This document shows, in pieces, positions 37,381-52,367 of a stretch of 64,000 nucleotides of DNA. This DNA is from an uncultured bacterium (GTDB taxonomy: Bacteria > Zixibacteria > MSB-5A5 > JAABVY01 > JAHJOQ01), in the NCBI GenBank assembly GCA_965369655.1, contig CBDUQR010000001.1, positions 160,001 through 224,000 on the forward strand, given 5' to 3'. Within the stretch, counting starts at the first letter, position 1. Each line of letters begins with the position of its first letter. Both the position numbers and the translations under genes were made by a program. Under the pieces are notes generated by a model that saw nothing but the letters and a program-made list of their open reading frames with translations, was not told the DNA's origin and searched no databases.

Positions 37381-38004
37381 TCACGATTGCAGTATAGATA
37401 CAAGGTCAATTCCTTCCCCTGCAACGATTTTCTTCAGTTGTTTCCGGCACTGTCTCAGATCATCTGACACCTTCTTATTACTCTCCTCTGGCCATCCGAG
37501 AACCAGTGCCATTTCTCTCGGCGTATATTCATCGGCCGCGAGTTGGAGCAATAGCTGACAATGCTTCCTGAGTCTGGAGACACATTCCTTCACACATTCA
37601 ATAACGCGCTTTAGATTCGTCCTGTCGAGCGGGTCAATGTCGGAATCTGACGCGATCCAGTCGAGATCAGGGCTGTTCATATCTGACTCATATTGCACAG
37701 TCATGCTTTCCCGTTTCTTCGCTCGAAGATAGTCCAGGCATTTGCGATGGGCGAGTATGTAGAGCCATGCGGCAAACGGCTTGCCGCAATCGGAGTATTG
37801 CCGCAGGACTCTGAAATTGTCCCGCGCACAGTGCAGGATTATATCCTGGGTCAGATCCTGCGATTCTGCTCTCGACAGTCGCCGCATGCTGCCGGGGGGC
37901 TTCACCTTCAGCAATCGGCATGTAAACGAGTAGAATTGTCTGAAAGCCTCGTCCGGGCTGCTATACAGTATATCCAGGAACGATGGCCAGGATTGGTTCA
38001 GCAT
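37381..38004 (-). CDS. ECF sigma-70 factor, module B
   Basis: QDLTQDI, FAAWLYILAHRKCLDYLR (region 2), YTPREMA...CRKQL (region 4). Confidence 0.88.
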   Translation of the reverse strand: MLNQSWPSFLDILYSSPDEAFRQFYSFTCRLLKVKPPGSMRRLSRAESQDLTQDIILHCARDNFRVLRQYSDCGKPFAAWLYILAHRKCLDYLRAKKRESMTVQYESDMNSPDLDWIASDSDIDPLDRTNLKRVIECVKECVSRLRKHCQLLLQLAADEYTPREMALVLGWPEESNKKVSDDLRQCRKQLKKIVAGEGIDLVSILQS

Positions 38005-38057
38005 CTCATCGCCAAATTAGTTCTGCGTATTTCCTGACTAATCAGTGGTCGGACTAA

Positions 38058-38086
38058 AGAATATCTCCTGAATCTCCTTATGTCAA
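38058..38086 (-). promoter_or_regulatory. Sigma70-type promoter for the module B sigma gene
   Basis: TTGACA-N17-TATTCT. Confidence 0.65.
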
Positions 38087-38102
38087 CTGATTTGGAGTGT
38101 AG

Positions 38103-38174
38103 TCTTGAGTAGTGACCCGTCCCTCAGGATCGGGATCAGCGACCGATAGCGAAGCGGAGTGGTCCTGCCATCTT
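38103..38174. repeat. GTAG-tagged REP-like element, copy 1
   Basis: tcttgagtag...cagcgaccgatagcgaagcggagtggtcctgccatctt; inverted copy at 50849-50898. Confidence 0.75.
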
Positions 38175-38213
38175 CTGTTCATGGCAGAACCACTTCCGTT
38201 TTTTTCCTGCTAA

Positions 38214-40001
38214 CTAATAGATGAAACAGTCCGGTGGTTCCGGGCCACCTCCGAAGATGTAATTGATCAGGAATACAACGTCATCAATGTCGACACTGCC
38301 GCTGCAATTAGCATCACCATTTAGGAGGCGAGGCTGAGGTTCGGGACCTCCGCCGAACACGTAGTTGATGATATAAGTGACGTCATCCACGTCCATCAAA
38401 CCGTTGTTGTCTGCATCGCCGCGAGTCACTGCCAGCAACGCCCGATCAGCATTCACACGCCCCCAGCCTACGTAGTTGTTGACGCGGAGCGTATCGGTTC
38501 CACCATATTGCTCGCGATCTGCTGACAGCCGAATGATCCGCCTGACCCTGTCCGGGTCGCCGATCAGGTCCGGCCTCCTCAGCATCAACAGTATGCATAT
38601 TCCCGACACCTGCGGGCAGGCCGCCGAGGTACCACCGAAGTTGCAGAGGTAGTCTGCGTCCTGCGTCAGGCAGTCCATAGAACCATCGTTTTTCCCCAAC
38701 ACTCCCATCTGGTCAAGGCTCCAGAAATGACCGTTCCAGTTGACATTTGCACCGGGAGCGACGACATCGAGCAGGGGACCATACTGGCTGTAGTACCATC
38801 TCTGGTCAGTGCTGTCCGTCGCACCGACCGAAATCGTGTGAGCATGACAAGCCGGATAGCCGATGGTTGAGTAGCCTGCATTACCTGAGGCAAATACCGT
38901 TACGACTCCAAGATCGTGGGCGCGATTGAGAGCAGAGTCGATTGCTGTGGAAGGCGTTTGAGCTGCTCTCCCCCAACTGTTGGATATTGCCACAGCACCG
39001 GAATCGATAGCGTTGCTCAGAGCTCGACCAATGTCTGACTCGCTTGCAACTGCCCAATGGTGGAATATCTTCTGGTTCAGAACTCGGACGTTGAATCCAG
39101 TTATGCTTGCCAGACCTGTACCATTATTCGTGTTGGCGCAGATTATCCCGGCGGTCGCCATGCCGTGAGCATCAGTTTCCCACGGGGATTCATCGTCCTC
39201 ATCGCTCACGTAGTTCCAGCCATCCGCGAGTCGTCCGGCTGGTAAATCAGCATGTGGGGCAAACCCGTCATCGACTACCGCAACAAGTATCGGTGTTGTC
39301 GGCATGTAGTAATCTCTGGCAAGGTCGAGATCAATGTCGGCATCAGGAGTACCTCCCGTCTGACCGGTATTCTTGAAATGCCACTGGTACTCCCAGTACT
39401 CGTCGTTCGGATCTGAGAAGCGTTCAAACGGTAATATGAAACTCGCGCGTGCAAGCTTAGCGACGCCAAGCTCATAAATGTCGTTTCCGATCGTCAGCAC
39501 ATCCGCAGGAGAGTCCTCTGTTACCTCCAGCGCCTGAAACCGGAAATCACCAAACAGAGTGTCGACAAGAACAAGGTTGTACATGTCGATTATGTTGTAA
39601 ATCGCAGTTCGCGACGTCTCTGCTCTGAATATGACAACCAGACTTCTTGTCAGGTAGATTTCCTGCTCAGTCTCATCGATGAAAGCCGCGTTGGCATAGA
39701 GAATGTCATCTCGGTCCCTTAGCCTGTTGAGCAGGCTGTCGATGTCGTAGCCTTCGTTGACAGTGAGAACGTGAAAGTGACTGGCAATCGGCTCGGGATC
39801 GGCTGTCTCATCCAATGCCTGGTCCGATTCCGTGATGTTCTGCCATGTTGTAAACTGAGCAGGGTCGACCTGCACGGTAACGGCAGTTTCAGAAACATCG
39901 AAGTCAACCCGACCGTCGGGTTCATACCAGAAATAATCCGCTCCATGCGCTGTCATAAAACTGGCAGCTATGAGCGCCAAAATAAGTATTAGCTTTTTCA
40001 T
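38214..40001 (-). CDS. Secreted subtilisin-like S8 peptidase with C-terminal dockerin
   Basis: Signal peptide; VAVVDDG, HGMATAG, GTSAACP triad; paired GDAD/GDAN...DIDDV repeats. Confidence 0.93.
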   Translation of the reverse strand: MKKLILILALIAASFMTAHGADYFWYEPDGRVDFDVSETAVTVQVDPAQFTTWQNITESDQALDETADPEPIASHFHVLTVNEGYDIDSLLNRLRDRDDILYANAAFIDETEQEIYLTRSLVVIFRAETSRTAIYNIIDMYNLVLVDTLFGDFRFQALEVTEDSPADVLTIGNDIYELGVAKLARASFILPFERFSDPNDEYWEYQWHFKNTGQTGGTPDADIDLDLARDYYMPTTPILVAVVDDGFAPHADLPAGRLADGWNYVSDEDDESPWETDAHGMATAGIICANTNNGTGLASITGFNVRVLNQKIFHHWAVASESDIGRALSNAIDSGAVAISNSWGRAAQTPSTAIDSALNRAHDLGVVTVFASGNAGYSTIGYPACHAHTISVGATDSTDQRWYYSQYGPLLDVVAPGANVNWNGHFWSLDQMGVLGKNDGSMDCLTQDADYLCNFGGTSAACPQVSGICILLMLRRPDLIGDPDRVRRIIRLSADREQYGGTDTLRVNNYVGWGRVNADRALLAVTRGDADNNGLMDVDDVTYIINYVFGGGPEPQPRLLNGDANCSGSVDIDDVVFLINYIFGGGPEPPDCFIY

Positions 40002-40004
40002 TTT

Positions 40005-41156
40005 CTATTTCTCCTTTTCCCAGTCAATTGGGATTAGTGCCATTGCTCGGGTATTCCCGAAGTCATTGTGTTTGAAATCGCGAACGATCTGCTTTGTCGC
40101 CATGTCTATCACATGTACCGGCCATGTCCCGAATCCCCAACCATTCAAAACAGCCATCTGTTTGCCGTTGGGTGTAAAGGCAAGGTATCGCGGCATAAAC
40201 CAGGGTGCTCCAAGGTTGTAGTAATCTGCATTAACGAAAGATTCGAAGATACCGGTTGTCAGGTCGTAAACGTCAATTCCACCCATCTCAGGGTTATCAA
40301 ACCCACCGTTCCACGGCATGAACAGGCGTTTCCCGTCCGGATGCCAGATGTACTGTCCGTACGATTGCCATGGGGCTAACCTCAACTCAAACTCGACGCT
40401 GTAATCAGTCGTATTGAGAATCTGGAAGAAAAGCACGCCCGGTCCCTTAATTCCCAGCACGACCAGCGAATCCCCGGAGGGGACAAATGACATGACACCG
40501 GGGACAAGCGGGTCGCCTGCCAGGTTTGTAAGTGGGATTGCAGATATCAGTTCAAGGCTGTCAGATTCGAAGGAGTACACGTACAGACTGTCCTTATGTG
40601 ATTTGGCAACTACCACAACTTTCTTACGTGGATGAAAGGTCATGTTTTCGGAGTGGAATGAGCCATCATTTTCCTCGAAAACCGGGGTCAGTTCCGGAAC
40701 CTTGTAGATAGCTGTGCGGGTTGTTAGGGAAGTGGCAATATACTGACCATCCGCAGAAATCGCCATTTGGATACCGCCATGCTCAGGATCGAATGCGAGT
40801 GTGTCTCCAGTACGGGTATCTGTCACCCATGTTGAGGGCTGTGAGTGCTCACAATTTATTACTGATCTCCGGGTGTAGTATGAGTACTTCCCGTCAGGTG
40901 AAAAAGTCACAGCGTCGAACGGATAGCAGGAGTAGCAAGTCGAATCAATCAGCAGCCCGCTCTTAAGGCTGTAAGTCGTGACAACATAGTCGACCGGCTC
41001 GTAGTTCGGCCGGACATAACTGTACAACAGGTGATAATCCGGCTCGCTCGGACACTCCGGACAAACCGGGCAGTCGTCATCGCCGCAGGAAAGCAGCAGG
41101 GCAAATGCCGATGCCGCGACGAGCATAATAACGATTAGATTAGTTTTGTAGTTCAT
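40005..41156 (-). CDS. Lipoprotein, beta-propeller (YncE-like)
   Basis: LLLSC lipobox; repeated FSPDGK/ISADGQ/WHPDGK/FTPNGK blades. Confidence 0.82.
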   Translation of the reverse strand: MNYKTNLIVIMLVAASAFALLLSCGDDDCPVCPECPSEPDYHLLYSYVRPNYEPVDYVVTTYSLKSGLLIDSTCYSCYPFDAVTFSPDGKYSYYTRRSVINCEHSQPSTWVTDTRTGDTLAFDPEHGGIQMAISADGQYIATSLTTRTAIYKVPELTPVFEENDGSFHSENMTFHPRKKVVVVAKSHKDSLYVYSFESDSLELISAIPLTNLAGDPLVPGVMSFVPSGDSLVVLGIKGPGVLFFQILNTTDYSVEFELRLAPWQSYGQYIWHPDGKRLFMPWNGGFDNPEMGGIDVYDLTTGIFESFVNADYYNLGAPWFMPRYLAFTPNGKQMAVLNGWGFGTWPVHVIDMATKQIVRDFKHNDFGNTRAMALIPIDWEKEK

Positions 41157-41510
41157 GTTCCTCCTTTTGTGGCGAACGTGTCAGGTCACACTCGCGCTCC
41201 GCGCGATCAAGACCCGACACAACGCAAAATGCTGTCGAATGATAATACAGATGCGCGGACACGCGCAATAGATTATGCATAAGCCACCTCCGTTCCCGAG
41301 CCGATAGTATCCACCGACTCAATCTCACCACCGGTGCAATTCGACATTCCCTTTCATCATTGGCGACACTGGTACAGTTGTATGGTAACGCACACAGGAG
41401 CGTTTTGTCAATGGTGATTTGAGCATTGGGAGTCTTCTTGACAATCGACCAGTCAATCATACCTTTATGTAGTGCCCTTAAGAATGTGCAACGACGCGCG
41501 CCGACAGGAT

Positions 41511-42578
41511 ATGGACAACAAATCCGAGATCATCAGGGGTTTTCTGAAAGCTCCGTTGAATCGCGATAGATTCGATGAATTCTATGCTCTGATCTACCGT
41601 CACACGGTCGGATATCTCAGCTATCTGAGACGAACAGGATACACGCTTCCAGCCGAGACCGGCGGCAGAGATAATCAGCTCTCCGATCTCGCGATAGATA
41701 TACTCGGAACACTGCTCCGGTGCGATTCGACGCGACCGTTTTATCTGATATTCGATTGTTTCGACAGGCACGGTATCACGGACTTCGATCGTGCCGCACC
41801 GGATGATCTATACTCCTGCCTGATCTCATTGCTACATGGGCATATACATCAGGAACTCAGCAAGCTGCTGAAAGCAACAAACCCTCAGATAGACAATCTG
41901 AAGCGGAGATTCAAAGATATCCTGAAAGGGAAGAATTATGGCTCTCTGAATACGGCGTCTGATACGTCGGAATGCGTGTATCTGCTGAAATATGAGGATG
42001 CACTTAGGGAGAATATGGTGTCATCGTCGGGCGATTTCCTGCTCTGGATAGCCGAGGATGCCTATCTCCAGAGCAACACGAGAAAAGCCTGGTGCAACAT
42101 GATTTTCGAGATGATAAACGAACAGACAGATCATCAGAATTTCACTCGGAAGCATGAACTTCTGGGCACAGTCGTATCAATCAACAGCCGCCAGATGGAA
42201 ATCGATACTATCCCGATGTACAGGCCTCGGAGTCCGATGCAGGAGTCGCTTCACCGCGAAGCGCAGAAATGCAAATCCGTGACGCTCGAATGGGCAAAGA
42301 ATGAAATCCTGAGCCATTTCGTCGAGAAAGGGAATATCAACAAGAGCGATGCCGTCGGACTGATGGCTGCGCTTGAAAAATATCTGAACGATTTCTGCGA
42401 GCATGGCGACACAGACCCGCTTCCGCGATATTTCAGGGAATGTATGCCTGATGAGACTCACAGGATGTATCTCAGCCACTACAAGTACATTTTCGAGACG
42501 CTTGCGGACAAATCGCTCGAATACCTGAAAGTTATTCTGAGAAAAAGAGCTACAGTTTTGGGTCTTGGAGACTATTAG
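41511..42578 (+). CDS. Atypical sigma-factor-like protein, module C (355 aa)
   Basis: RFDEFYALIYR...LSDLAIDIL resembles sigma region 2; precedes a ZAS protein; its 3' end overlaps a repeated promoter-like motif. The family call is weak; the ORF itself is solid. Confidence 0.55.
   Translation: MDNKSEIIRGFLKAPLNRDRFDEFYALIYRHTVGYLSYLRRTGYTLPAETGGRDNQLSDLAIDILGTLLRCDSTRPFYLIFDCFDRHGITDFDRAAPDDLYSCLISLLHGHIHQELSKLLKATNPQIDNLKRRFKDILKGKNYGSLNTASDTSECVYLLKYEDALRENMVSSSGDFLLWIAEDAYLQSNTRKAWCNMIFEMINEQTDHQNFTRKHELLGTVVSINSRQMEIDTIPMYRPRSPMQESLHREAQKCKSVTLEWAKNEILSHFVEKGNINKSDAVGLMAALEKYLNDFCEHGDTDPLPRYFRECMPDETHRMYLSHYKYIFETLADKSLEYLKVILRKRATVLGLGDY
42550..42577 (+). promoter_or_regulatory. Promoter-like motif C before the ZAS and Lon genes
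   Basis: CTACAGtTTTgggtCTTGGaGaCTATTA, 21/28 identical to 45852-45879. Confidence 0.65.
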
Positions 42579-42607
42579 TACAATGAACGGACACAGGAGG
42601 GTGGATA

Positions 42608-43462
42608 TTGCATCCGTCTAAAGCAGAACTGAGGCTGTTTGTCGAGAACGCCATGCAGGATGCCGCCGCGCGCGCGCGTATCTCTGAGCACATAGGGAAC
42701 TGCGAATTCTGCTCGGAATTCTGTGAGGAGTACACGTTATATCTCGTCTCTATCGAGGACACGGATAGATTAGATCTCTCACAGGCAGCTTTCAATGCCG
42801 CTGATGATATATTCAGGCACGCTCTGCGAGGGGTGATTATTGATATGCAACCTCTCGCAGGCGATATCGATACGCCTCTCAGGCTTGCAGCCGATGGCAA
42901 GGAGGAATTCCGGCCCGAGATTGTTAATCTCGCAACGCTCTGCTCCGAACAACCCGAAGCTATTCTCCGCGTCATGCGCGACAGCGGTCGTGGCATCGAC
43001 TATGTGCAGTTGATCTCCGACGACCCGGAGTTGTCCCAGAACGTGATGATACGGATACCGGAGATCGGATGGGAGTCGCTCACCGATGATGAAGGCAAAG
43101 CGATCATCGAAAAACAGATCGGCGATGACATATCAAACCTCAAGTGGCAGATTAAACTGCCGGATGCCGTATTCTCGATGAAGCCGCTCGAGTATGATCC
43201 TGACGAGACCAGATGCTCAGGCGAAACCGAACTGACTACGGCCGACTCCGACAGGATTCATGTCGAGCTTCAAAGTAAGACCGAAGGCAAACAGATCGTA
43301 ATCAAAATTCTCGAACTAGACGGCAAGAAAGATTTCGGCGATGTCCGGGTCGCCATATCGCAGGGCGGTGTCACAACTACATCGTCAACGTCCGGAAACA
43401 AGACAATCTCGTTCGATTTGACCGACACAGAGAGTGTCATAAACATCAGGATATTCCAGTAA
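42608..43462 (+). CDS. Soluble ZAS-type anti-sigma-like protein, module C
   Basis: HP..ELRLF..HIGNCEFC (HxxxCxxC); no TM helix; TTG behind AGGAGG. Confidence 0.72.
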   Translation: MHPSKAELRLFVENAMQDAAARARISEHIGNCEFCSEFCEEYTLYLVSIEDTDRLDLSQAAFNAADDIFRHALRGVIIDMQPLAGDIDTPLRLAADGKEEFRPEIVNLATLCSEQPEAILRVMRDSGRGIDYVQLISDDPELSQNVMIRIPEIGWESLTDDEGKAIIEKQIGDDISNLKWQIKLPDAVFSMKPLEYDPDETRCSGETELTTADSDRIHVELQSKTEGKQIVIKILELDGKKDFGDVRVAISQGGVTTTSSTSGNKTISFDLTDTESVINIRIFQ

Positions 43463-43466
43463 CACA

Positions 43467-45842
43467 ATGTCCCTGCTGCAATTTGCAAAAGAATTCGCGA
43501 AGCTCAAATCGGACCTTGCCGCCCAGCCGGTTCCCGATTTGCAGCTCCTGTGTCTGATTGATTTCTGGCCGAGCCTCGCGGATCACGCTGCCGAGAGTTC
43601 ATACCGGAGTTATCTCGATGAATATGTGCCACTGCTGCTACACCTGATCTCAGCCGAGAATCTCTCCGATCTCACCATGCACGAGCTATTGCACTTACAA
43701 GATGTGCTCGCCGATCTTTCCGCGCTTGAATCGGTGAATGACAAACTCAAAGATCAACGCAGGCTTGTTTCGCAGGAACTTGCGCGACGGTATTTCTATG
43801 CCGGAGCGGTCGAAGATGCCCTGACAATATGCATCGAACCATCGTGGGCGGCAGAAGCAGTAGGTCGGCGTTCCGTAGCAGGCGAAGCCTGCAAGAAACC
43901 CGACACCAGCACAACAAAGAGTAAGTGTCGCGTTTCTCTCCCTCGTACCTCGGCATCGGAACACGACCTACAAGATCTAAGCGAGTTCGAAGCATTTGAA
44001 TCAATCATCGAACATACCCGAGGCCGCGACAACTCGCTCGACGCTTTCCTGAGCAATCTCCATGACGATTGGCAGGGCGACCGCGACGCGATCTATCACG
44101 ACCGGATCAACGCGCTGTTTGTCGACAAGGATGACGCCGGTCGTGCATGGCGCGGCAGGATGAAATCACTCACCGGCAAGGTCGAGCTGTTCGGCAAATC
44201 GGCTACGACCGACGAGATCACGTTCGACAACCAGATCAAATCGCCGGATGATCCATTTATCGGCGTGGCGTATCATTCGCTCGATGCTGTGCGGCAATCG
44301 ATGAAACGCGCAAGGTTTAGGAAACAGTCTGAGGCGTTCTATCATGCTCATTTCGCGGTCGAGAATAGCCAGCAGACATTCACCGGCGATTCGATTGGGC
44401 TGGCGACAGGGCTGCTGACTTACGCGCAGCTTCTGGAACCTGAGATCATGCGGCAGGACAAGTTCATCGGGGCGGATATCGCTGTCACGGGTGGTGTGGA
44501 TGATTCCGGCGCAGTAACACAGGTCAACGACGATACATTGAAGCTCAAAATCGAACGGGCGTTTTTCTCGCCGGTCAGGCATATTATCGTGCCGGATGGG
44601 AATCTGTCTGCTGCGCGTGAGCATATCGAGAAATTGCGAGAGAGATATCCGCGCAGGCGGCTCAGGCTGATCGGAGTTGAATCGCTGACCGATGCAATCG
44701 AGAACAGGAATATCATCCGCGAGGAAAAAGTCTGCATCGGCGAATTCGTCACGAAACAAGTTTACCACTACAGTCGCACAGCCAAAATTCAAGTACCGAT
44801 ACTGCTGATACTCGCATACTTCCTCCTCTGCATGATCTACCCAAAAGCATGGGTGGGATTTGATTGGAATCCGGCAAGTGTGGAACTGACGGAGACTGGA
44901 TTTGTCGCTCTGAACGCTGATTCAAGGTCCTTATGGTCAGTTGAATATGAGTGTGAATTGCTCTATGCGAGATCGCAATGGACAATGAGCGATTTGAACG
45001 GCGATGGCATGAATGACGTAGTTTTCATGCCTATGGCGTCCCCCAATGCTCCCTGCAGAAGCAACGCTCATCTTTTCGCGTACGACCACACAGGCAAAGA
45101 ACTGTTCGCAAGGCAGGGGGCGGTTCTTGGTGAATATGTGAGTGATACATCTGCTAATTTCCCATATTCGGCGGGTTTAATTGACGTTGTACAAGTCAGT
45201 GGAACGAGTGTCATCGTCAGCAGGGTCTATGCATCCTACCCTGCTCGTTACCACATCAAAATGTGGAGTACTGATGGCGACTCTCTCGGTTGGTACATAA
45301 ACTCAGGATATAGCGGTGTTGTGAATGAAAAATGTTTCGCTGTCGATAGATACGGCAACCTGATGTTTCTTGCGCTCAACAATCGTATGGGTTGTGCCTG
45401 CTTTTTCGTAATTGCTCCGGATTCGAGCTATGGCGTGTCACCACCTTATCCTGAATGGCTTCGTGGCCAAAGAGGACTTAGACACGGGAACCAACTATGC
45501 TATCTTCTGTTTCCGCGCACAGATATTAACCGCGAGATAGAACTGGATTACAATGGACCATTCCGTATTGTCATCAACTCCAGTGACGAGATTCGAGTCG
45601 ATATAGGTGAATCTAAAGAACCCGAATGCAACCTAAGCTATTTCCTTGACGAGAACTTCCGTGTTACACATGTAAAAGCCGATGACCGGTTCATCCCACT
45701 TAGGCGTCGCCTCATAGACGAAGGGAAACTCCCTTCAGTGGACTTGTCTACGTATCTGGCCAATCTTGTCGACTCAGTTACCTACTGGACCGACTCCGGC
45801 TGGGTAACCGAAGGCGAACTCCGCGCCTTGGAAAAAAACTGA
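43467..45842 (+). CDS. Membrane-anchored Lon (S16) protease-domain protein with extracytoplasmic FG-GAP/beta-propeller-like domain
   Basis: GDSIGLA...DIAVTGGVDDSGAV..V...LKLK...IIVP..N matches the Lon proteolytic domain (Ser-Lys dyad); no AAA+ module; one TM (VPILLILAYFLLCMIY); DLNGDGMNDVV repeat. Confidence 0.8.
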   Translation: MSLLQFAKEFAKLKSDLAAQPVPDLQLLCLIDFWPSLADHAAESSYRSYLDEYVPLLLHLISAENLSDLTMHELLHLQDVLADLSALESVNDKLKDQRRLVSQELARRYFYAGAVEDALTICIEPSWAAEAVGRRSVAGEACKKPDTSTTKSKCRVSLPRTSASEHDLQDLSEFEAFESIIEHTRGRDNSLDAFLSNLHDDWQGDRDAIYHDRINALFVDKDDAGRAWRGRMKSLTGKVELFGKSATTDEITFDNQIKSPDDPFIGVAYHSLDAVRQSMKRARFRKQSEAFYHAHFAVENSQQTFTGDSIGLATGLLTYAQLLEPEIMRQDKFIGADIAVTGGVDDSGAVTQVNDDTLKLKIERAFFSPVRHIIVPDGNLSAAREHIEKLRERYPRRRLRLIGVESLTDAIENRNIIREEKVCIGEFVTKQVYHYSRTAKIQVPILLILAYFLLCMIYPKAWVGFDWNPASVELTETGFVALNADSRSLWSVEYECELLYARSQWTMSDLNGDGMNDVVFMPMASPNAPCRSNAHLFAYDHTGKELFARQGAVLGEYVSDTSANFPYSAGLIDVVQVSGTSVIVSRVYASYPARYHIKMWSTDGDSLGWYINSGYSGVVNEKCFAVDRYGNLMFLALNNRMGCACFFVIAPDSSYGVSPPYPEWLRGQRGLRHGNQLCYLLFPRTDINREIELDYNGPFRIVINSSDEIRVDIGESKEPECNLSYFLDENFRVTHVKADDRFIPLRRRLIDEGKLPSVDLSTYLANLVDSVTYWTDSGWVTEGELRALEKN
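43860..43971. repeat. GTAG-tagged REP doublet inside the Lon-domain CDS
   Basis: gtaggtcggcgttccg / cggaacacgacctac outer inverted repeats, gaaacccgacac / gtgtcgcgtttc inner inverted repeats. Confidence 0.75.
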
Positions 45843-45851
45843 AGAACATCT

Positions 45852-45879
45852 CTACAGATTTCCTCCTTGGTGTCTATTA
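45852..45879 (+). promoter_or_regulatory. Promoter-like motif C before the secreted protein gene
   Basis: CTACAGaTTTcctcCTTGGtGtCTATTA. Confidence 0.65.
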
Positions 45880-45917
45880 TTGGTTTAGAAGTTAAACCTG
45901 AACTGAGGAGATGTCCA

Positions 45918-47333
45918 ATGACTTCAAAATGTTTCTATGTGTTCATCACACTGCTCTTTCTTGCTCCGTATGCTAATGCAACAGACCCGCCCGGAAATGT
46001 GCTGGTCTATGCAACGTACGTGGGCGGCAACGGTTATGACCAGTATATGTTTGATTCAACTCTAGTCGGAGTTTTGTATGAGCGCGGTTACAATGCCACA
46101 GTAACAGACAGGACCGAAACAACGGAGATAACTGCTCTACTGTTGGAGAACTATGATCAGCTTTGGTTTTTCTCTACTCAAGAAGGTCCGAGCGTGGAAC
46201 TAGCCCCTGAGGAGATCAATGCAATTCTGGCATTTCAATCCCAGGGCAAAGGGCTATTCATAGCTGCTGAAAATGCACCACATTATACGTACACTGCTAA
46301 CTTGGTTGCCTGTTCACTAGGTGTGACTTTTTGGGGAATTGTCGATCACGCTGAAGGAGATGCTGGTGGTATCATTATCTTCCCTGAGTTTGAAGACCAT
46401 CCCTTGTTTTGCGGGGTGTCCCAGATTTCTGCATATAGGAACGAATGCGATATGTCTGTTGTGCCGCCTGCTGATGTAGTCGCAACCTACAACGGTCACA
46501 ATCTAATCGCTGTACGAGACGCCGGCGCAGGCCGGTGTGTTTTTGACGTTAGTTTCGTCAGAGCATTCGATGGTCAGATTATGAGGGGTGACAATGCGCA
46601 ATACTACGGCAATATTGCTGATTGGTTGCAGTTCTGCGTTCCGTCCATCACTATGATTTCTCCTGACCCAACCTACGTCTACTGGGCTTTTGCTATGATA
46701 CCGATGGTGGAAAAAGTATACATTGGTGATTTCGGTTGTGGCTATACAGCAAGCGATATAAATCCGTGGTCTGTCCTTCTGAACGGATCGGTTTCGCCAG
46801 TAGATTTCGAGATTCTTCCCGGTATGGAAGGTTTCACAGGCGAAGTGATGGAACTGCACTATCCTCTCGCAGATTTCATCTGGACATACCCTGTTCTTTA
46901 CGACACAACCTTGCAGGAATATGGCGTTGCTGGTATGTTTACCGATGGTCATACTTTCGCTGCCTCGGGAGATGTCACGATCATTGGCAAGAACTCTCGC
47001 GCAACTCGTAATGTATACCTCAAGCCAGACAACGACGAAATCAGCATTAAGCCATCAGAGTTCGCGCTGTACCAGAATCAGCCGAATCCATTCAATCCGA
47101 CGACTGAGATCAGTTTCAATCTGCCTGTGATGTCGAATGTCAGGCTTGATGTCTACAATATCACTGGACAGAAAGTCACAACGCTCGTCGATGGACCGAT
47201 GCAGCCGGGACCGCATTCGGTGACATGGAACGGCATGTCCGACAGCGGCGAACCGGTCGCGTCCGGCATTTATTTCTATCGTATCGAGGCCGGAGATTTC
47301 ACGGAGAACAAGAAGATGCTGCTTCTCAAATAG
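45918..47333 (+). CDS. Secreted protein with GATase-like/DUF4350-like N-terminal domain and FlgD/T9SS-like C-terminal domain
   Basis: ATG behind GAGGAG; signal peptide; LLENYDQLW...GKGLFIAAE; QNQPNPFNP...SGIYFYRI...KKMLLLK. Confidence 0.82.
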   Translation: MTSKCFYVFITLLFLAPYANATDPPGNVLVYATYVGGNGYDQYMFDSTLVGVLYERGYNATVTDRTETTEITALLLENYDQLWFFSTQEGPSVELAPEEINAILAFQSQGKGLFIAAENAPHYTYTANLVACSLGVTFWGIVDHAEGDAGGIIIFPEFEDHPLFCGVSQISAYRNECDMSVVPPADVVATYNGHNLIAVRDAGAGRCVFDVSFVRAFDGQIMRGDNAQYYGNIADWLQFCVPSITMISPDPTYVYWAFAMIPMVEKVYIGDFGCGYTASDINPWSVLLNGSVSPVDFEILPGMEGFTGEVMELHYPLADFIWTYPVLYDTTLQEYGVAGMFTDGHTFAASGDVTIIGKNSRATRNVYLKPDNDEISIKPSEFALYQNQPNPFNPTTEISFNLPVMSNVRLDVYNITGQKVTTLVDGPMQPGPHSVTWNGMSDSGEPVASGIYFYRIEAGDFTENKKMLLLK

Positions 47334-47346
47334 AGCGAATGAAGCG

Positions 47347-47507
47347 TGTCAAGACCTCACCCCAAGGGGTGAGCCACCCGAAATCGCAGCATCAAATCGG
47401 GGTGGGCGAAAAGCCTGCCCCTTATTGTTGTGCGATTCAAATTGATCCTCACTGTGAAGATGGACCCCGGCAGGTCCTGAGTATAGCGAAGGGTTTTCAC
47501 CGGGGTG
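47347..47507. repeat. Cluster of short palindromes / REP-like units between convergent genes
   Basis: ctcacccc-aa-ggggtgag; accccgg...gtcctgagtatagcgaaggg...ccggggt (core shared with 10657-10676). Confidence 0.55.
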
Positions 47508-47708
47508 ACATGAGAGGCAACCATCCGACCGCAGTGGGTGAGTCCAGTAGCGCAGGAGTCGGAGGCTTATGCGAAATTTTTCTTGCGGCTACGGCTTCAC
47601 ATCCCAGGAATGCAGGAATGCCAAAACGGTTTTCGTGTTCGGGTGGTCGGATCCAAGTATGGCGAGATATATCCCGTACGCGCGTTTGACCATTTCGACA
47701 CGCACACT

Positions 47709-50700
47709 TTAATTCTTGACTGCGGCAGAACCCTTGACTTTGACGATGATTTTCCTCGCACATTCTTCAGGCTTCAATCCTGAGATGTCAATGTACCCGA
47801 CGAGTGAAGACAAACCTTCAAGCTCAGAGTTATCAAATCTCATCGGTAGGATATAACCTTCAGCTTTCTGAGCGATGACTTTCGACAATGCGGACTTGAA
47901 CTCATGATTCGTCCATCCCTTTTCAACATAGTCCTTAGATATGAATATAACGACCCGTTCGGATTCCTTCCCATAGATCCTGCTAAATTCATTAGCCAAA
48001 TCCTTTCCCCAAAGCTCCACTTCATAATCCTCGTCATAGAAAACGTTAATGTCGCCTTCTTCATCTAAAGTCTTTTTCACTTGACGAACATAGTTCCGTT
48101 GCTCACCTGCAAAGGAGAGAGCGACATCGAATTTCTTGCCTCCCACAGTACCAACCTTGACCTTCGGTACAGCTTCTTCATGTTCAACCCTTGCAAGCTC
48201 AGCCTTAATTTCGGCGTATCTGCTCGGATCAATCCTAAAGGACTGCGCTCCGCTCAGTCCATTAATCATAACATACTTAATATTTGTGTTCGAAGGCACC
48301 CGCTCAAGCAAACCAGCCCTGTTCAAATTTCGTAGCCAATTGGACATTTCCTCCTGTTCGTTGGGGAAGTTGTGGCACAGATCGAAGATACTAATCGGTT
48401 GTTCTGGCATCTCGCTATTGATGTCAAGGATGAACTTGAGTATCAGACTGCGGAGTGTACGACCTTTACTTATTGGAATATGTGGTGGAGATTCATAGTC
48501 ATCAGTTTTAAAGGTAAATTCCGTGGCACCAGGCTCTTCGGAAATCATTCTCAAGGCGAATCTGATGGTCTCATAGTGCATCTGGTTTTTTTGCTCATCG
48601 AAGTGTGTCTTAATCAGCAATGATGTTACCAATACTCTGAAACTTGAGTCCCCGTTTACTTGACGGAAATCATATATCCACCTGATCATATCTTGTGGAT
48701 CATCTTTACCAAAGTCAGATTTTCTGGCCAATACCAGATAGCGGCGAGGTTCACCTTTCACAACGGTTATCGTGTAACCTAAATGAGCCATATTGTGTCT
48801 TCCCCTTAGTACTAGCGAGTAGTGCTCGTCTTTGAGTACTTCGATCGCTTTCTCCCTGATTTCATACGCCCTTTCATACAGCGGCTCCGCATCATCATAT
48901 CTGCCCTGAGTCTCGTAGAGTATGGCGAGGCTTTCGAGGTCAGCAGCGACCTTTAGGTGATCTGAACCGTAGATATTCTCGTCAATCTTAAGCGCCCTCT
49001 TGTACAACAGTTCCGCTTGGCCGTAGTCAGCTCGGTCATGAAGATAGTAGCCGGTGCGACTGAATAGCTGGGCTACAGTCTCGTTAGAAATCTCCAGCGA
49101 ATCTGTATGTTGAACTAGTGAGAGTATGTGCGGCAATATTGTCTCGCATTCAGACCAGGTCCTATAATCTCTTTCATCCGGGAGCGTCTCTGAGGTGCAA
49201 ACTATAGCCAACTCCGCCCACTTACGCGCATCACCTGATTCAGTGTGATTATCACGTATAACCGCCTGGAGCAGACGGTGCAAGCTGAATTCATCAGTAT
49301 CTCGTTTGCGACGGATCAGCGAATAGCTCTGAAGTGCCCCGAGAGCCTTGTCCAATTCGAATGTGTCATAGGCAACACTCTTGAGATTATCGTCGAATGA
49401 ATCCACTCTCTTCCTGAACAGACCAAGCGGAATGGCATCAGGTGCGAAGTATGCCGCAAGCGATAGAACATCAATTGCTACCTTACTCTTCTGCTGAAGT
49501 GTTTCTAGAGACATCGACCATGTTGTGGCAACAGTGTGATCATAATCATCTGGCGAGTAACGTTTATCTTTAAGTACCTCGATCCCCTTTTCCTTGAGAT
49601 CGTTCAGGTAATCGTCCAGACTGCACCGTGTCTTTTCGACAAACGCACCCGCCTGATCGACTGCCAGCGGCAGCAGACCGAGCTCATTGGAGATATCCTT
49701 CGCTGTCCGGTGTTGATCATCCGTCGGCTCTTCGATATTAGCTCGTTTCAGGAGAAAATCTATAGCTTCATCTTCGGCCATCTCGGTTACTTCGAGAGCC
49801 TTCGCAAGATTACCAAAAGCCGAAGCTCTGGAGGTTAAGAGTGTTTGTCCCTGCCCTGAGCGTGGTTGATACTCTTTGATGATCTCAGGTTTGTCCGCAT
49901 TATCGTATATCAGCAGCCATTCGTTGTGAGTTTCAAGCCATGTCTTGACAGCAGCAACAACAACTCCTAATTCCTTATCATCCTTCTCCGGAAGATTAAG
50001 AAGTCTGGCGATTTCACTGTAGCTGGATGTTATTGTAGTTTCAGATTCAGAGTTGACCCAGATTATGAACTTGTAGTCTTTGATATGTTGATATGCATAT
50101 TCGACAGCGATCTGTGTCTTGCCGATTCCTCCCAATCCTGATATGGCTTGAGGCTGTGACAATGCAGTACTGCCAGACTTACTCAGCGATTCATGAAGAT
50201 CCTTCAACAAGTCTTCACGACCGGTAAACAGAGGATTCTGCGGGAAAGGGAGATTGTGCAGTGTCACACCGGGAATTTCGTATGGCTTGAATGCCTCGGA
50301 ATCGATGTATCCTCTAACATCAAGAGGTAACTCTGCAGGATTCCTGATTTCTATTTGTTGTCTCATTCCCATGCGTTCAAATATCATTTTGAGAAAGAGA
50401 TCCAACCGTCTACTAACTTTCGCCGAAAGCAACTGTTGCAGCGGCTGCTGAGACCACATGCGATCTTCGAGTCTTTGTACGAAGAACATGATCGCTTCTT
50501 TCTCATTATCTCCAATGGTAAAGTCGCGATATGTATCTTCCAAATCTTTCCACAACCTGTCAAAATCGACTGGTTCTGTGATACCCGGATCGAGTAATTT
50601 CCGCCACAGTTCGTCATTCACTGATTCGTTGATAATGAAGCTGTGGTCAACAGAACCATGACCACCAGTGTCGTATCCCTGTTTAGCCAAATCTTTAAGA

Positions 50701-50813
50701 GTTTCTTTGAGAGCATCGCGAAACGCTGACCGCTGCTTTTTATCTGTGAGCCATTGATCAACTTTGTGGCCAAGAATTGCCGTAGCCGCGAGTTCTATAA
50801 TCTTGAAAATCAT
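47709..50813 (-). CDS. STAND/NB-ARC NTPase with TPRs and C-terminal TIR domain (start 50813 or 50819)
   Basis: FTGRE, GLGGIGKT, LLIYDNAD, GLLPLAV, LHRLLQ; about 2 TPRs; FDVALSFAGEQR...FISKDYVEKGWTNHE TIR. Confidence 0.9.
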   Translation of the reverse strand: MIFKIIELAATAILGHKVDQWLTDKKQRSAFRDALKETLKDLAKQGYDTGGHGSVDHSFIINESVNDELWRKLLDPGITEPVDFDRLWKDLEDTYRDFTIGDNEKEAIMFFVQRLEDRMWSQQPLQQLLSAKVSRRLDLFLKMIFERMGMRQQIEIRNPAELPLDVRGYIDSEAFKPYEIPGVTLHNLPFPQNPLFTGREDLLKDLHESLSKSGSTALSQPQAISGLGGIGKTQIAVEYAYQHIKDYKFIIWVNSESETTITSSYSEIARLLNLPEKDDKELGVVVAAVKTWLETHNEWLLIYDNADKPEIIKEYQPRSGQGQTLLTSRASAFGNLAKALEVTEMAEDEAIDFLLKRANIEEPTDDQHRTAKDISNELGLLPLAVDQAGAFVEKTRCSLDDYLNDLKEKGIEVLKDKRYSPDDYDHTVATTWSMSLETLQQKSKVAIDVLSLAAYFAPDAIPLGLFRKRVDSFDDNLKSVAYDTFELDKALGALQSYSLIRRKRDTDEFSLHRLLQAVIRDNHTESGDARKWAELAIVCTSETLPDERDYRTWSECETILPHILSLVQHTDSLEISNETVAQLFSRTGYYLHDRADYGQAELLYKRALKIDENIYGSDHLKVAADLESLAILYETQGRYDDAEPLYERAYEIREKAIEVLKDEHYSLVLRGRHNMAHLGYTITVVKGEPRRYLVLARKSDFGKDDPQDMIRWIYDFRQVNGDSSFRVLVTSLLIKTHFDEQKNQMHYETIRFALRMISEEPGATEFTFKTDDYESPPHIPISKGRTLRSLILKFILDINSEMPEQPISIFDLCHNFPNEQEEMSNWLRNLNRAGLLERVPSNTNIKYVMINGLSGAQSFRIDPSRYAEIKAELARVEHEEAVPKVKVGTVGGKKFDVALSFAGEQRNYVRQVKKTLDEEGDINVFYDEDYEVELWGKDLANEFSRIYGKESERVVIFISKDYVEKGWTNHEFKSALSKVIAQKAEGYILPMRFDNSELEGLSSLVGYIDISGLKPEECARKIIVKVKGSAAVKN

Positions 50814-50848
50814 GCTCAATCCTAAATTGCTCCGGTAACCATTGACAA

Positions 50849-50912: not shown

Positions 50913-52367
<1,455 letters not shown>

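Follow-up and report, generated by a model that had tools for sequence, protein, structure and literature searches.

We analyzed a stretch of 64,000 nucleotides (nt) from an uncultured Zixibacteria bacterium (GenBank assembly GCA_965369655.1, contig CBDUQR010000001.1, positions 160,001 to 224,000 of the forward strand); we call this whole stretch the window and number all positions by it. It contains four genes in the same orientation, g1 to g4. The g3 gene encodes a membrane protein in which a Lon proteolytic domain, a transmembrane (TM) helix, and a beta-propeller are joined, g2 a soluble protein that resembles zinc-binding anti-sigma (ZAS) factors, g1 a candidate sigma-like factor, and g4 a type IX secretion system (T9SS) cargo protein, which is preceded by a promoter-like motif. 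We lean, with slightly better than even confidence, toward reading this module as a proteolytic transmembrane signaling system with its own dedicated output promoter. An initial annotation of this DNA had proposed a cascade of this kind, and every part of it that could be tested by computation found support, with the qualifications on g1 and on the CRISPR parallel given below. The four co-oriented genes that it described are present in the list of open reading frames (ORFs) at the positions it gave. In the genome annotation, all named homologs of g1, g2, and g3 are hypothetical proteins; one UniRef name starts with “Lon.”

The 791-residue product of g3 (43467 to 45842, plus strand) comprises a helical N-terminal domain (residues 1 to 205), a Lon (S16) proteolytic domain (residues 206 to 420; 44082 to 44726), a single TM helix (VPILLILAYFLLCMIYPKAW, residues ∼443 to 462; 44793 to 44852), and a beta-propeller with a conserved tail (residues 466 to 791). 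Searches of Pfam, NCBIfam, and the PDB with the single sequence returned nothing. The best Lon match of a profile built from 81 family members was Archaeoglobus fulgidus LonB (1z0e; E = 1.4e-7), and in the profile alignment the GDS motif at residues 307 to 309 (Ser309 at 44391 to 44393) and Lys361 (44547 to 44549) lie opposite the catalytic Ser and Lys of that enzyme. G307, S309, and K361 are invariant among the 81 aligned sequences, as are G614, G656, and P659. A weak match to the PADLOC model CARF_LON (residues 312 to 393; E = 5.8e-4) covers the Lon part alone. The family is large: after clustering at 50% identity, 1,077 representatives match at E ≤ 0.001, and 725 and 199 of them still match when the threshold is lowered to 1e-10 and 1e-30, respectively.

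Structure comparison led to the same fold. With the AlphaFold model of g3 (predicted local distance difference test [pLDDT] 92.3; predicted template modeling score [pTM] 0.66), Foldseek retrieved Lon at E = 4.3e-9, and the Escherichia coli Lon proteolytic domain (3wu6_B) matched with a TMt of 0.83 and a root mean square deviation (rmsd) of 3.0. VIA-align placed Bacillus subtilis LonBA (8dvh_B) on model residues 207 to 419 with a Z score of 22.1 (rmsd 2.2; 177 residues aligned), E. coli Lon (1rr9_A) at Z 21.5, the Lon-like domains of RadA, ComM, and BrxL at Z 17 to 18.6, and CalpL (7qda_A) at Z 12.8 (rmsd 2.5; 135 residues aligned). The domain is thus a member of the S16 fold family with a Ser-Lys dyad, and this dyad, which the initial annotation had read from the letters, aligns with that of Lon. 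The absence of an AAA+ module, also claimed there, held in a search for AAA+ families in Pfam and NCBIfam, which found none in g3 at E ≤ 0.1; by contrast, a similar scan of a LonB/LonC-like protein that neighbors one g3 homolog (locus L028) gave AAA_32 at 1.7e-44. The helical domain of 205 residues that precedes the Lon domain matched nothing in Pfam or NCBIfam.

The remaining parts of g3 agree with the earlier description of one TM helix followed by an FG-GAP- or propeller-like C-terminal half. Hydropathy analysis gave one strong segment (windows of 1.7 to 2.2 starting at residues 438 to 447; helix 439 to 457 in the model) and one borderline window at residue 632, within the propeller. Residues ∼450 to 766 matched beta-propellers at Z 11.4 to 14.0, and in the profile search the C-terminal half gave FG-GAP-type matches (6mlt, hemolysin related, 3.4e-6; YesW, 3.1e-4); FG-GAP Pfam families are on record for two g3 homologs. 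Since basic residues precede the single TM helix and there is no signal peptide, the N-terminal domain and the Lon domain should lie in the cytoplasm and the propeller in the periplasm.

An unusual insertion is found in the g3 gene of the window. A dispersed palindromic repeat of 114 nt (43858 to 43971) is read in frame at residues ∼131 to 168, where it forms a loop between the N-terminal domain and the Lon domain, with pLDDT below 50 at residues 134 to 151. The repeat has 49 further blastn matches in the 2.99-Mb genome at ∼68 to 97% identity, partial copies counted, and 28 translated matches elsewhere in the genome, many with stop codons; its predicted RNA fold has an energy of −47.2 kcal/mol (z = −5.7). 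The stretch is covered by only 2 of 80 g3 homologs, most orthologs being without it, and two homologs (P0079 and P0082) carry unrelated-looking insertions at the same position. The element is reminiscent of the in-frame palindromic elements of Rickettsia.

We then compared g3 loci across genomes, taking one genome per species. This gave 31 loci. In 27 of these, the sequence extends 2 kb or more upstream of g3; the remaining four are truncated on that side, one of them still containing the end of g2. In 23 of these 27, hidden Markov models (HMMs) located g1, g2, and g3 side by side in one orientation. The flanking genes vary between loci. The repeated occurrence of the trio, in one gene order and in many genomes, puts the arrangement far outside what chance would give. 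The conservation of the trio on which the proposed cascade depends is borne out, all the more as a second class of paralogs shows it too. Homologs of g3 fall into a long class, to which the window's copy belongs, and a short class, which matches the profile from position ∼184 onward. Among 16 further loci taken from shorter or weaker g3 matches, 14 have a short-class g3; upstream of it, in the same order, a g2-like gene was found by HMM in all 14 and a g1-like gene in 10. Three of the other four have an ORF of 347 to 418 residues at the g1 position, L058 being the fourth. L066 and L067 match in the propeller only and have neither g1 nor g2. The short-class protein g1' is homologous to g1 over its full length (hhalign probability 99.3%, E = 3e-20), and both classes coexist in single genomes, e.g., G099 and G019.

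The four loci that depart from this order differ among themselves. L028 (4458 to 7016, minus strand, and 10461) has a g3 paralog without g1 or g2 and a divergent LonB/LonC-like AAA+ protease upstream; it keeps TCTACA-N16-GCTAT, the motif described below, after the g3 stop codon, and because this motif still follows its g3, the g1 and g2 partners may be encoded elsewhere. In L032 (6494 to 7442, minus strand), a truncated g3 homolog (a frame of 527 residues) stands beside a divergent canonical extracytoplasmic function (ECF) sigma factor (Sigma70_r2, 2.4e-18; r4_2, 5.9e-15) and a short ORF that is weakly g2-like (E = 1.6e-8). Such a locus could connect the module with conventional pairs of an ECF sigma factor and a ZAS protein. 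L036 and L038 have a rubrerythrin gene upstream, and the g3 of L036 is spread over three frames.

Among 151 sampled Zixibacteria genomes, 70 carry a g3 homolog at E ≤ 1e-10, and the copy number reaches five. Metagenome-assembled genomes (MAGs) labeled “Ignavibacteria” were considered as an extension beyond the phylum and set aside, as they seem to fall within the same phylum set; the phylum of G151 appears to be the same as that of G000, since their matches stand at identical contig coordinates. One MAG labeled Abyssobacteria among the homologs gives a hint only.

The g2 gene (42608 to 43462, plus strand) encodes 284 residues from a TTG start. Its product consists of a ZAS domain (residues ∼1 to 80), a linker, and a strongly conserved C-terminal domain (residues 100 to 284), which is the best-conserved part of the protein in an alignment of 46 sequences. 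In that alignment H28, C32, C35, A94, and A95 are invariant, and H2, L93, D96, and G97 are conserved in at least 90%. As the initial annotation had it, this is an HxxxCxxC protein without a TM segment: HIGNCEFC occupies residues 28 to 35 (42689 to 42712), and no 19-residue window reaches a hydropathy of 1.6. Single-sequence searches of Pfam, NCBIfam, PADLOC, and the PDB were blank or gave noise, and ESM Atlas matches to the C-terminal domain scored at most 0.82 and were uninformative. At the family level, zf-HC2 (PF13490) matches 22 of the 46 members at E ≤ 0.1 (best 2.3e-7) and is recorded in precomputed annotation for 3 of 51 homologs; with the family profile as query, RsiW, an anti-sigma factor, is the top PDB match (E = 0.018), aligned on HxxxCxxC. 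Judged by these sequence matches, g2 is, as a family, of the ZAS/zf-HC2 kind. Its short-class counterpart g2' has HxxxCxxC in 14 of 14 sequences, with a Cys ∼25 to 30 residues upstream in every stretch displayed.

The linker holds a second conserved element. In the window it reads LAADG (residues 93 to 97; 42884 to 42898), and LAA is present in all 46 long-class sequences; short-class linkers read LAAxG/A in 13 of 14 and IAAEG in the other. The initial annotation had guessed that an RLAAD stretch was the cleavage site, and this guess is strengthened both by the conservation and by analogy with the published cleavage site and degron of CalpT, discussed below.

The g1 gene (41511 to 42578, plus strand) encodes 355 residues from the ATG at 41511, a start supported by ortholog alignment; the ORF lister chose the GTG at 41472. 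No Pfam family is recorded for any of its 22 homologs, and no 19-residue window of g1 is hydrophobic. In the predicted structure (pLDDT 82.9; pTM 0.39), a sigma-2-like region (residues 1 to 123) is followed by a mixed alpha/beta region (139 to 231) and a helical C-terminal domain (238 to 355). When the model was compared by VIA-align with 48,161 chains, 10 of the 12 listed matches spanning residues 1 to 123 were sigma factors: ShbA (9m84_F, Z 7.6), pro-sigma-K (7.2), BldN (6dxo_A, 6.5; rmsd 2.8), SigI6 (8i24_F, 6.1), CnrH (6.0), SigB (6.0), region 2 of sigma-E (5.9), region 2 of RpoS (5.9), Rhodobacter sphaeroides SigE (5.8), and SigW (5.5). The remaining two were an SRI domain and an RNA-editing complex. 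In a second look, all 12 matches spanning this domain were sigma or holoenzyme entries, and sigma-2 of Mycobacterium tuberculosis SigC (2o7g_A) aligned over 86 of 88 residues (Z 6.6; rmsd 2.9). Residues 238 to 355 gave generic helical matches only (phycobiliprotein-like, Z ∼7.5). ESM Atlas look-alikes of g1 (score 0.96) come from unnamed clusters labeled Calditrichota, Bacteroidota, and Ignavibacteriota and serve as a lead only.

Structure prediction also pairs g1 with g2. Full-length g1 and residues 1 to 100 of g2, each with its own alignment, were modeled as a complex in three runs, which gave interface scores (ipSAE) of 0.67, 0.68, and 0.66, against 0.16 for the best control. As a calibration, which holds roughly because we supplied our own alignments for the pair, 58 of 80 solved complexes and 2 of 110 mismatched pairs attained the mark. 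Contact agreement between runs was at least 87%, and the pLDDT of the partner was at least 74. The predicted interface comprises residues 15 to 77 of g1 (including the sigma-2-like helices 18 to 41 and 53 to 68), 185 to 191, and 225 to 233 and residues 1 to 76 of g2. Because sigma/ZAS complexes have already been solved, part of this agreement may reflect likeness to known structures. The models thus support binding of g1 to the ZAS domain of g2, the sigma:ZAS complex that the initial annotation had called for.

A bipartite promoter-like motif lies between g3 and the next gene. In the window it reads TCTACA, 16 nt, TCTAT (45851 to 45877, plus strand), beginning 8 nt past the g3 stop codon and ending 41 nt before the ATG of g4; across loci it is TCYACA, exactly 16 nt, nCTA[TCA]. 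With a search pattern that allowed A or G at position 4 of the hexamer, all 15 long-class regions contained the motif, each with A there; of 10 short-class regions, 9 contained it, each with G instead (TCTGCA, TCCGCA, CCGGCA, and TGGGCA); the spacer is 16 nt throughout both classes. L055 and L068 have degenerate variants. A leave-one-out position weight matrix (PWM) found a same-strand match between −80 and +400 of the g3 stop codon in 23 of the 24 long-class loci with sequence after g3, some of which were never in the training set. Its background was 9 matches in 779,938 strand-bases, some of them second copies of the motif at the g1-g2 junction. Judged by the consensus sequences of these types, the motif is presumably neither a sigma-54 nor a Bacteroidota-type housekeeping promoter.

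Such second copies occur at the g1-g2 junction of L012 (27.7 bits), L019 (28.7 bits), L010 (12.5 bits), and the short-class locus L052. In the window, a weak copy at the end of g1, ahead of g2 (GCTACA, 16 nt, ACTAT; 42549 to 42575), scores 9.2 to 9.9 bits, which is within the range of shuffled genomes. The position of the junction copies suggests feedback on g2-g3 in some loci. Autoregulation at g1 was considered and rejected, as TCYRCA-N16-CTA was found upstream of g1 in 0 of 22 loci. Instead, 13 of 22 loci have TTGAC-N16-19-TAnnnT in the 200 nt that precede g1, compared with a mean of 0.32 and a maximum of 3 in 200 shuffles. In the window, a housekeeping-type promoter-like site (TTGACA, 16 nt, TACCTT; 41438 to 41465, plus strand) can be read 5′ of g1; a separate consensus scan did not list it.

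The gene behind the motif, g4 (45918 to 47333, plus strand), encodes a secreted protein, as initially annotated. The ORF lister placed its start at the TTG at 45867; the ATG at 45918 is likelier, since it stands behind GAGGAG and opens the signal-like sequence MTSKCFYVFITLLFLAPYANA. An N-terminal part follows the signal peptide, and the C terminus is a T9SS sorting domain (FlgD_ig, 7.3e-10, 39.1 bits against a cutoff of 27; TIGR04183 [Por_Secre_tail], 1.7e-7, 31.1 bits against a cutoff of 23). The gene after g3 encodes a T9SS C-terminal domain in 16 of 27 other loci scanned; the whole genome of the window has 36 matches to such domains. The N-terminal modules of these cargo proteins vary and include FG-GAP, dockerin, PKD, BACON, CBM, LamG, and C10 peptidase domains. 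We therefore rejected g4 itself as a conserved fourth member of the module: the T9SS tail alone recurs. A hairpin with a T-run (47399 to 47430, plus strand; stem of 9 pairs, 7 of them G-C) resembles an intrinsic terminator and closes the four-gene unit.

In L009 (10402 to 13233) and other loci, several of the downstream T9SS cargo proteins are FG-GAP propellers, and one downstream FG-GAP cargo weakly matches the g3 profile (E = 1e-5). Sensor domain and cargo may thus be related in some loci.

Several of our results weigh against a sigma-based cascade. Searches of Pfam, NCBIfam, and the PDB, by sequence and by profile, gave no sigma-70 signal in g1; sigma region 2 (PF04542, TIGR02937) was not matched, and a Sigma70_r2 search of the window's genome listed 12 other genes without g1. 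In hhalign comparisons with 12 sigma factors from that genome, the probabilities were 0.4% for g1 and 0.3% for g1', and Foldseek with the g1 model returned nothing at E ≤ 0.001. The sigma-2 matches (Z 5 to 7.6) fall in the range that VIA-align rates as middling for helical models, so their weight lies in the consistency of the matches and not in the height of Z. No sigma-4-like domain was found in Pfam or among the listed fold matches, none of which covers residues 124 to 237, a part that the fold comparison barely probed. Zf-HC2 does not match the window's own g2 at E ≤ 0.1, and 4 of the 27 g3 homologs have no adjoining g1 or g2. The propeller shows nearly the same conservation as the Lon domain (identity to the window's g3, 0.33 versus 0.38), which is unexpected if paralogs sense different ligands. 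As for the promoter-like motif, the A/G difference separates two clades and may therefore be one evolutionary event. A PWM built without the window ranks its site at 45851 first in the 2.99-Mb genome, with 21.0 bits against 13.4 for the next, but shuffled genomes reach 13.8, 20.1, and 20.3 bits, two of the three close to the score of the window; the weight of this site thus rests on its position and recurrence.

For g1 the outcome is therefore divided. The sigma-region-2-like N terminus of the initial annotation is seen by fold comparison, at middling Z, and fails by sequence and profile, and of the matches expected then, middling ones to the sigma-2 fold and zf-HC2 (in part of the g2 family) were found and sigma-4 was not. 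We conclude that by sequence g1 lies outside the sigma-70 family and that the models point, weakly but consistently, to a sigma-like fold. A cascade with the same proteolytic steps could instead release a g1 that is no sigma factor but a DNA-binding activator or another effector sequestered by g2, acting at TCYACA-N16-CTA together with the housekeeping holoenzyme or having a nontranscriptional role. In favor of this explanation are the lack of sigma-70 similarity, the missing sigma-4 domain, the generic helical matches of the C-terminal domain, and the middling Z scores. Still, nearly all the matches that span the N-terminal domain are sigma-2 domains, the partner is of the ZAS type, a family known for sigma binding, and the predicted interface uses the sigma-2-like helices of g1. 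Moreover, the motif is bipartite, has a fixed spacer of 16 nt, and stands shortly before a start codon, like an ECF-type promoter. We consider a nonsigma g1 unlikely.

The soluble nature of g2 and its H/C…HxxxCxxC ligand set would also fit a redox- or zinc-responsive pair like RsrA-SigR, in which g1 and g2 sense cytoplasmic thiol stress and g3 has another substrate, with a role in, e.g., periplasm-linked quality control or self-processing. The strict adjacency of g3 in two paralog classes speaks against such a pair, as does the universal LAA in an otherwise variable linker, which mirrors the CalpT site; the large and strongly conserved C-terminal domain of g2 would have no role in a purely redox model. 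We regard this explanation as improbable. A CRISPR-free antiphage or abortive-infection system akin to CalpL-CalpT-CalpS, whose released factor reprograms or arrests the cell, is very improbable despite the weak CARF_LON match of g3, its structural match to CalpL, and an NB-ARC/TPR/TIR STAND gene adjoining on the other strand, since g3 has no SAVED or CARF domain and would sense through a periplasmic propeller behind a TM helix, its matches to canonical Lon domains are much stronger than that to CalpL, PADLOC gave no match for g1 or g2, the genes around the module change from locus to locus, and what is conserved next to it is a gene for a T9SS cargo, behind a promoter-like motif of its own, instead of defense genes.

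Returning to the transmembrane signaling cascade that we favor, we propose the following sequence of events. In the resting state, the ZAS domain of g2 would hold g1 inactive, and the C-terminal domain of g2 would probably be docked on the N-terminal or the Lon domain of g3, by analogy with CalpT and CalpL. A periplasmic signal at the propeller would activate the Lon domain, most likely through the oligomeric state of the receptor, and the activated domain would cut the g2 linker at the invariant LAA|DG. This cut, in an otherwise variable linker just behind the ZAS domain, would yield the same …LAA end as in CalpT. The ZAS fragment would then end in LAA-COOH, an ssrA-like degron, and be removed by ClpXP-type proteases; ClpX is encoded in the genome of the window (615 bits). 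The freed g1 would engage RNA polymerase and drive transcription from the TCYACA-N16-nCTAy promoter behind g3. The output would be a variable T9SS-secreted surface protein and, at some loci, g2-g3 as well.

A bolder proposal goes further in three respects: that g1 founds a new family of initiation factors, that g3 is a single-polypeptide receptor-protease, and that the receptor reads the sorting domain of the cargo or the state of the T9SS. Taken jointly, these points are possible but doubtful. The g1 family would have a sigma-2-like core beyond the reach of sigma-70 profiles and its own promoter code, TCYRCA-N16-CTA, in which position 4 of the hexamer would insulate paralogous modules within one cell. 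The idea about the ligand comes from the contrast between a conserved propeller and a cargo that varies except for its T9SS domain; on this view, every module would act as a regulator that is coupled to secretion and reserved for a single cargo.

A textbook way to relay envelope signals is the regulated proteolysis of an anti-sigma factor, and to our knowledge a signaling Lon protease has been known until now from the CRISPR-linked CalpL-CalpT-CalpS system. If our interpretation is true, the module joins these two themes: sensor and protease are combined in one membrane protein, the anti-sigma-like partner is soluble, and the output factor is strongly diverged. The module is common in one phylum, with g3 homologs in nearly half of the Zixibacteria genomes, and the proposal makes testable predictions, namely, the cleavage site LAA|DG, the catalytic residues S309 and K361, a promoter in which one base determines specificity, and a particular target gene. 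It would also provide an initial way to approach the control of type IX-secreted surface proteins in uncultured Zixibacteria.

The genes around the unit in the window are of other kinds. Upstream, a divergent operon (37381 to 41156, minus strand) adjoins g1; it encodes a beta-propeller protein with a lipoprotein-like N terminus (40005 to 41156), an S8 subtilase with a dockerin-like tail (38214 to 40001), and an ECF-type sigma factor (37381 to 38004; TIGR02937, 7.9e-13), all on the minus strand. These genes were considered as members of the module and rejected, as they do not recur next to the module at other loci. Downstream and convergent with g4, a gene at 47709 to 50819 (minus strand) encodes a STAND protein of 1,036 residues with NB-ARC, TPR, and C-terminal TIR domains and PADLOC matches to PDC-S66 (6.7e-12) and RT-TIR (9.1e-5); it is likely a defense gene. 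The ORF list has a further frame of 474 residues at 50913 to 52337 (minus strand). A scan of the eight proteins at 37381 to 50819 with Pfam and PADLOC found no cas families.

Among known systems, CalpL-CalpT-CalpS is alike in having an ATPase-less Lon domain, a site-specific signaling protease there and a putative one here, beside genes for an anti-sigma-like and a sigma-like protein. According to the SAVED-Lon preprint, the bond that CalpL cleaves in CalpT is that between A204 and A205, inside LAAA, the CalpT fragments stay bound to CalpS, and the new …LAA end of CalpT is a C-degron, so that cellular proteases remove the fragment and free the sigma factor (10.1101/2024.05.08.593097). The Ala-rich, unstructured LAAA site described there has its counterpart in the invariant LAA of the g2 linker. 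The systems differ in their input, as CalpL has a SAVED domain and responds to cyclic oligoadenylate, whereas g3 has neither and carries a TM helix and what should be a periplasmic propeller. They differ too in the partners: CalpT is described in the same preprint as a MazF-like/DUF2080 protein (10.1101/2024.05.08.593097), in contrast to the zf-HC2 ZAS protein g2, and CalpS is recognizably ECF-like, unlike g1. The output here would be a local promoter for a T9SS cargo gene. Because CalpT is not a ZAS protein, the likeness lies in the logic and the Lon domain and not in the whole set.

The RsiW/SigW (PrsW, RasP, and ClpXP) and RseA/SigE (DegS, RseP, and ClpXP) systems share with the module, if our reading is right, a ZAS-type N-terminal domain that holds the sigma factor and the path from an envelope signal to anti-sigma proteolysis; RsiW is also the best PDB match of the g2 profile. 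In both pathways the final step uses an Ala-Ala C-terminal degron. The SAVED-Lon preprint cites the VAA of RseA as a degron (10.1101/2024.05.08.593097). These anti-sigma factors span the membrane and are cut by separate site-1 and site-2 proteases, whereas the anti-sigma-like g2 is soluble. In g3, protease and sensor are parts of one membrane-spanning protein, so that a single cytoplasmic Lon cut would take the place of the site-1/site-2 relay. The canonical Lon enzymes (LonA, LonB, and LonC; MEROPS S16) have the same proteolytic fold and Ser-Lys dyad. They differ in their AAA+ module; g3 has no detected AAA+ and instead has an unmatched helical N-terminal domain, a TM helix, and a propeller.

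In their multiple paralogous modules, each controlling a neighboring gene for a secreted or surface protein, SigI-RsgI and the ECF/anti-sigma pairs of Bacteroidota resemble the arrangement seen here, and the SigI structure 8i24_F is among the matches of the g1 N-terminal domain. Cargo genes of the module often encode dockerin, CBM, BACON, or PKD domains, which invites comparison with the regulators of surface polysaccharide-degrading systems. For PorXY-SigP, published work gives PorA, a protein with a T9SS C-terminal domain, as the ligand of a T9SS regulator. These systems differ in that they use a membrane-spanning anti-sigma factor or a two-component system together with recognizable sigma-70-family factors. 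We know of no Lon-domain receptor in SigI-RsgI, in Bacteroidota ECF/anti-sigma pairs, or in PorXY-SigP, and none surfaced in the literature searched. The initial annotation had not recognized the combination as described, and our literature searches likewise turned up no account of a receptor that joins a Lon domain, a TM helix, and a propeller and has a ZAS protein as its partner; the main text of the ECF classification paper contains neither “Lon” nor “protease” as a whole word. Thus, the module belongs to a known kind, anti-sigma proteolysis by a signaling Lon domain, and what is new in it is the transmembrane receptor-protease, the soluble ZAS partner, the highly diverged output factor, and the dedicated promoter.

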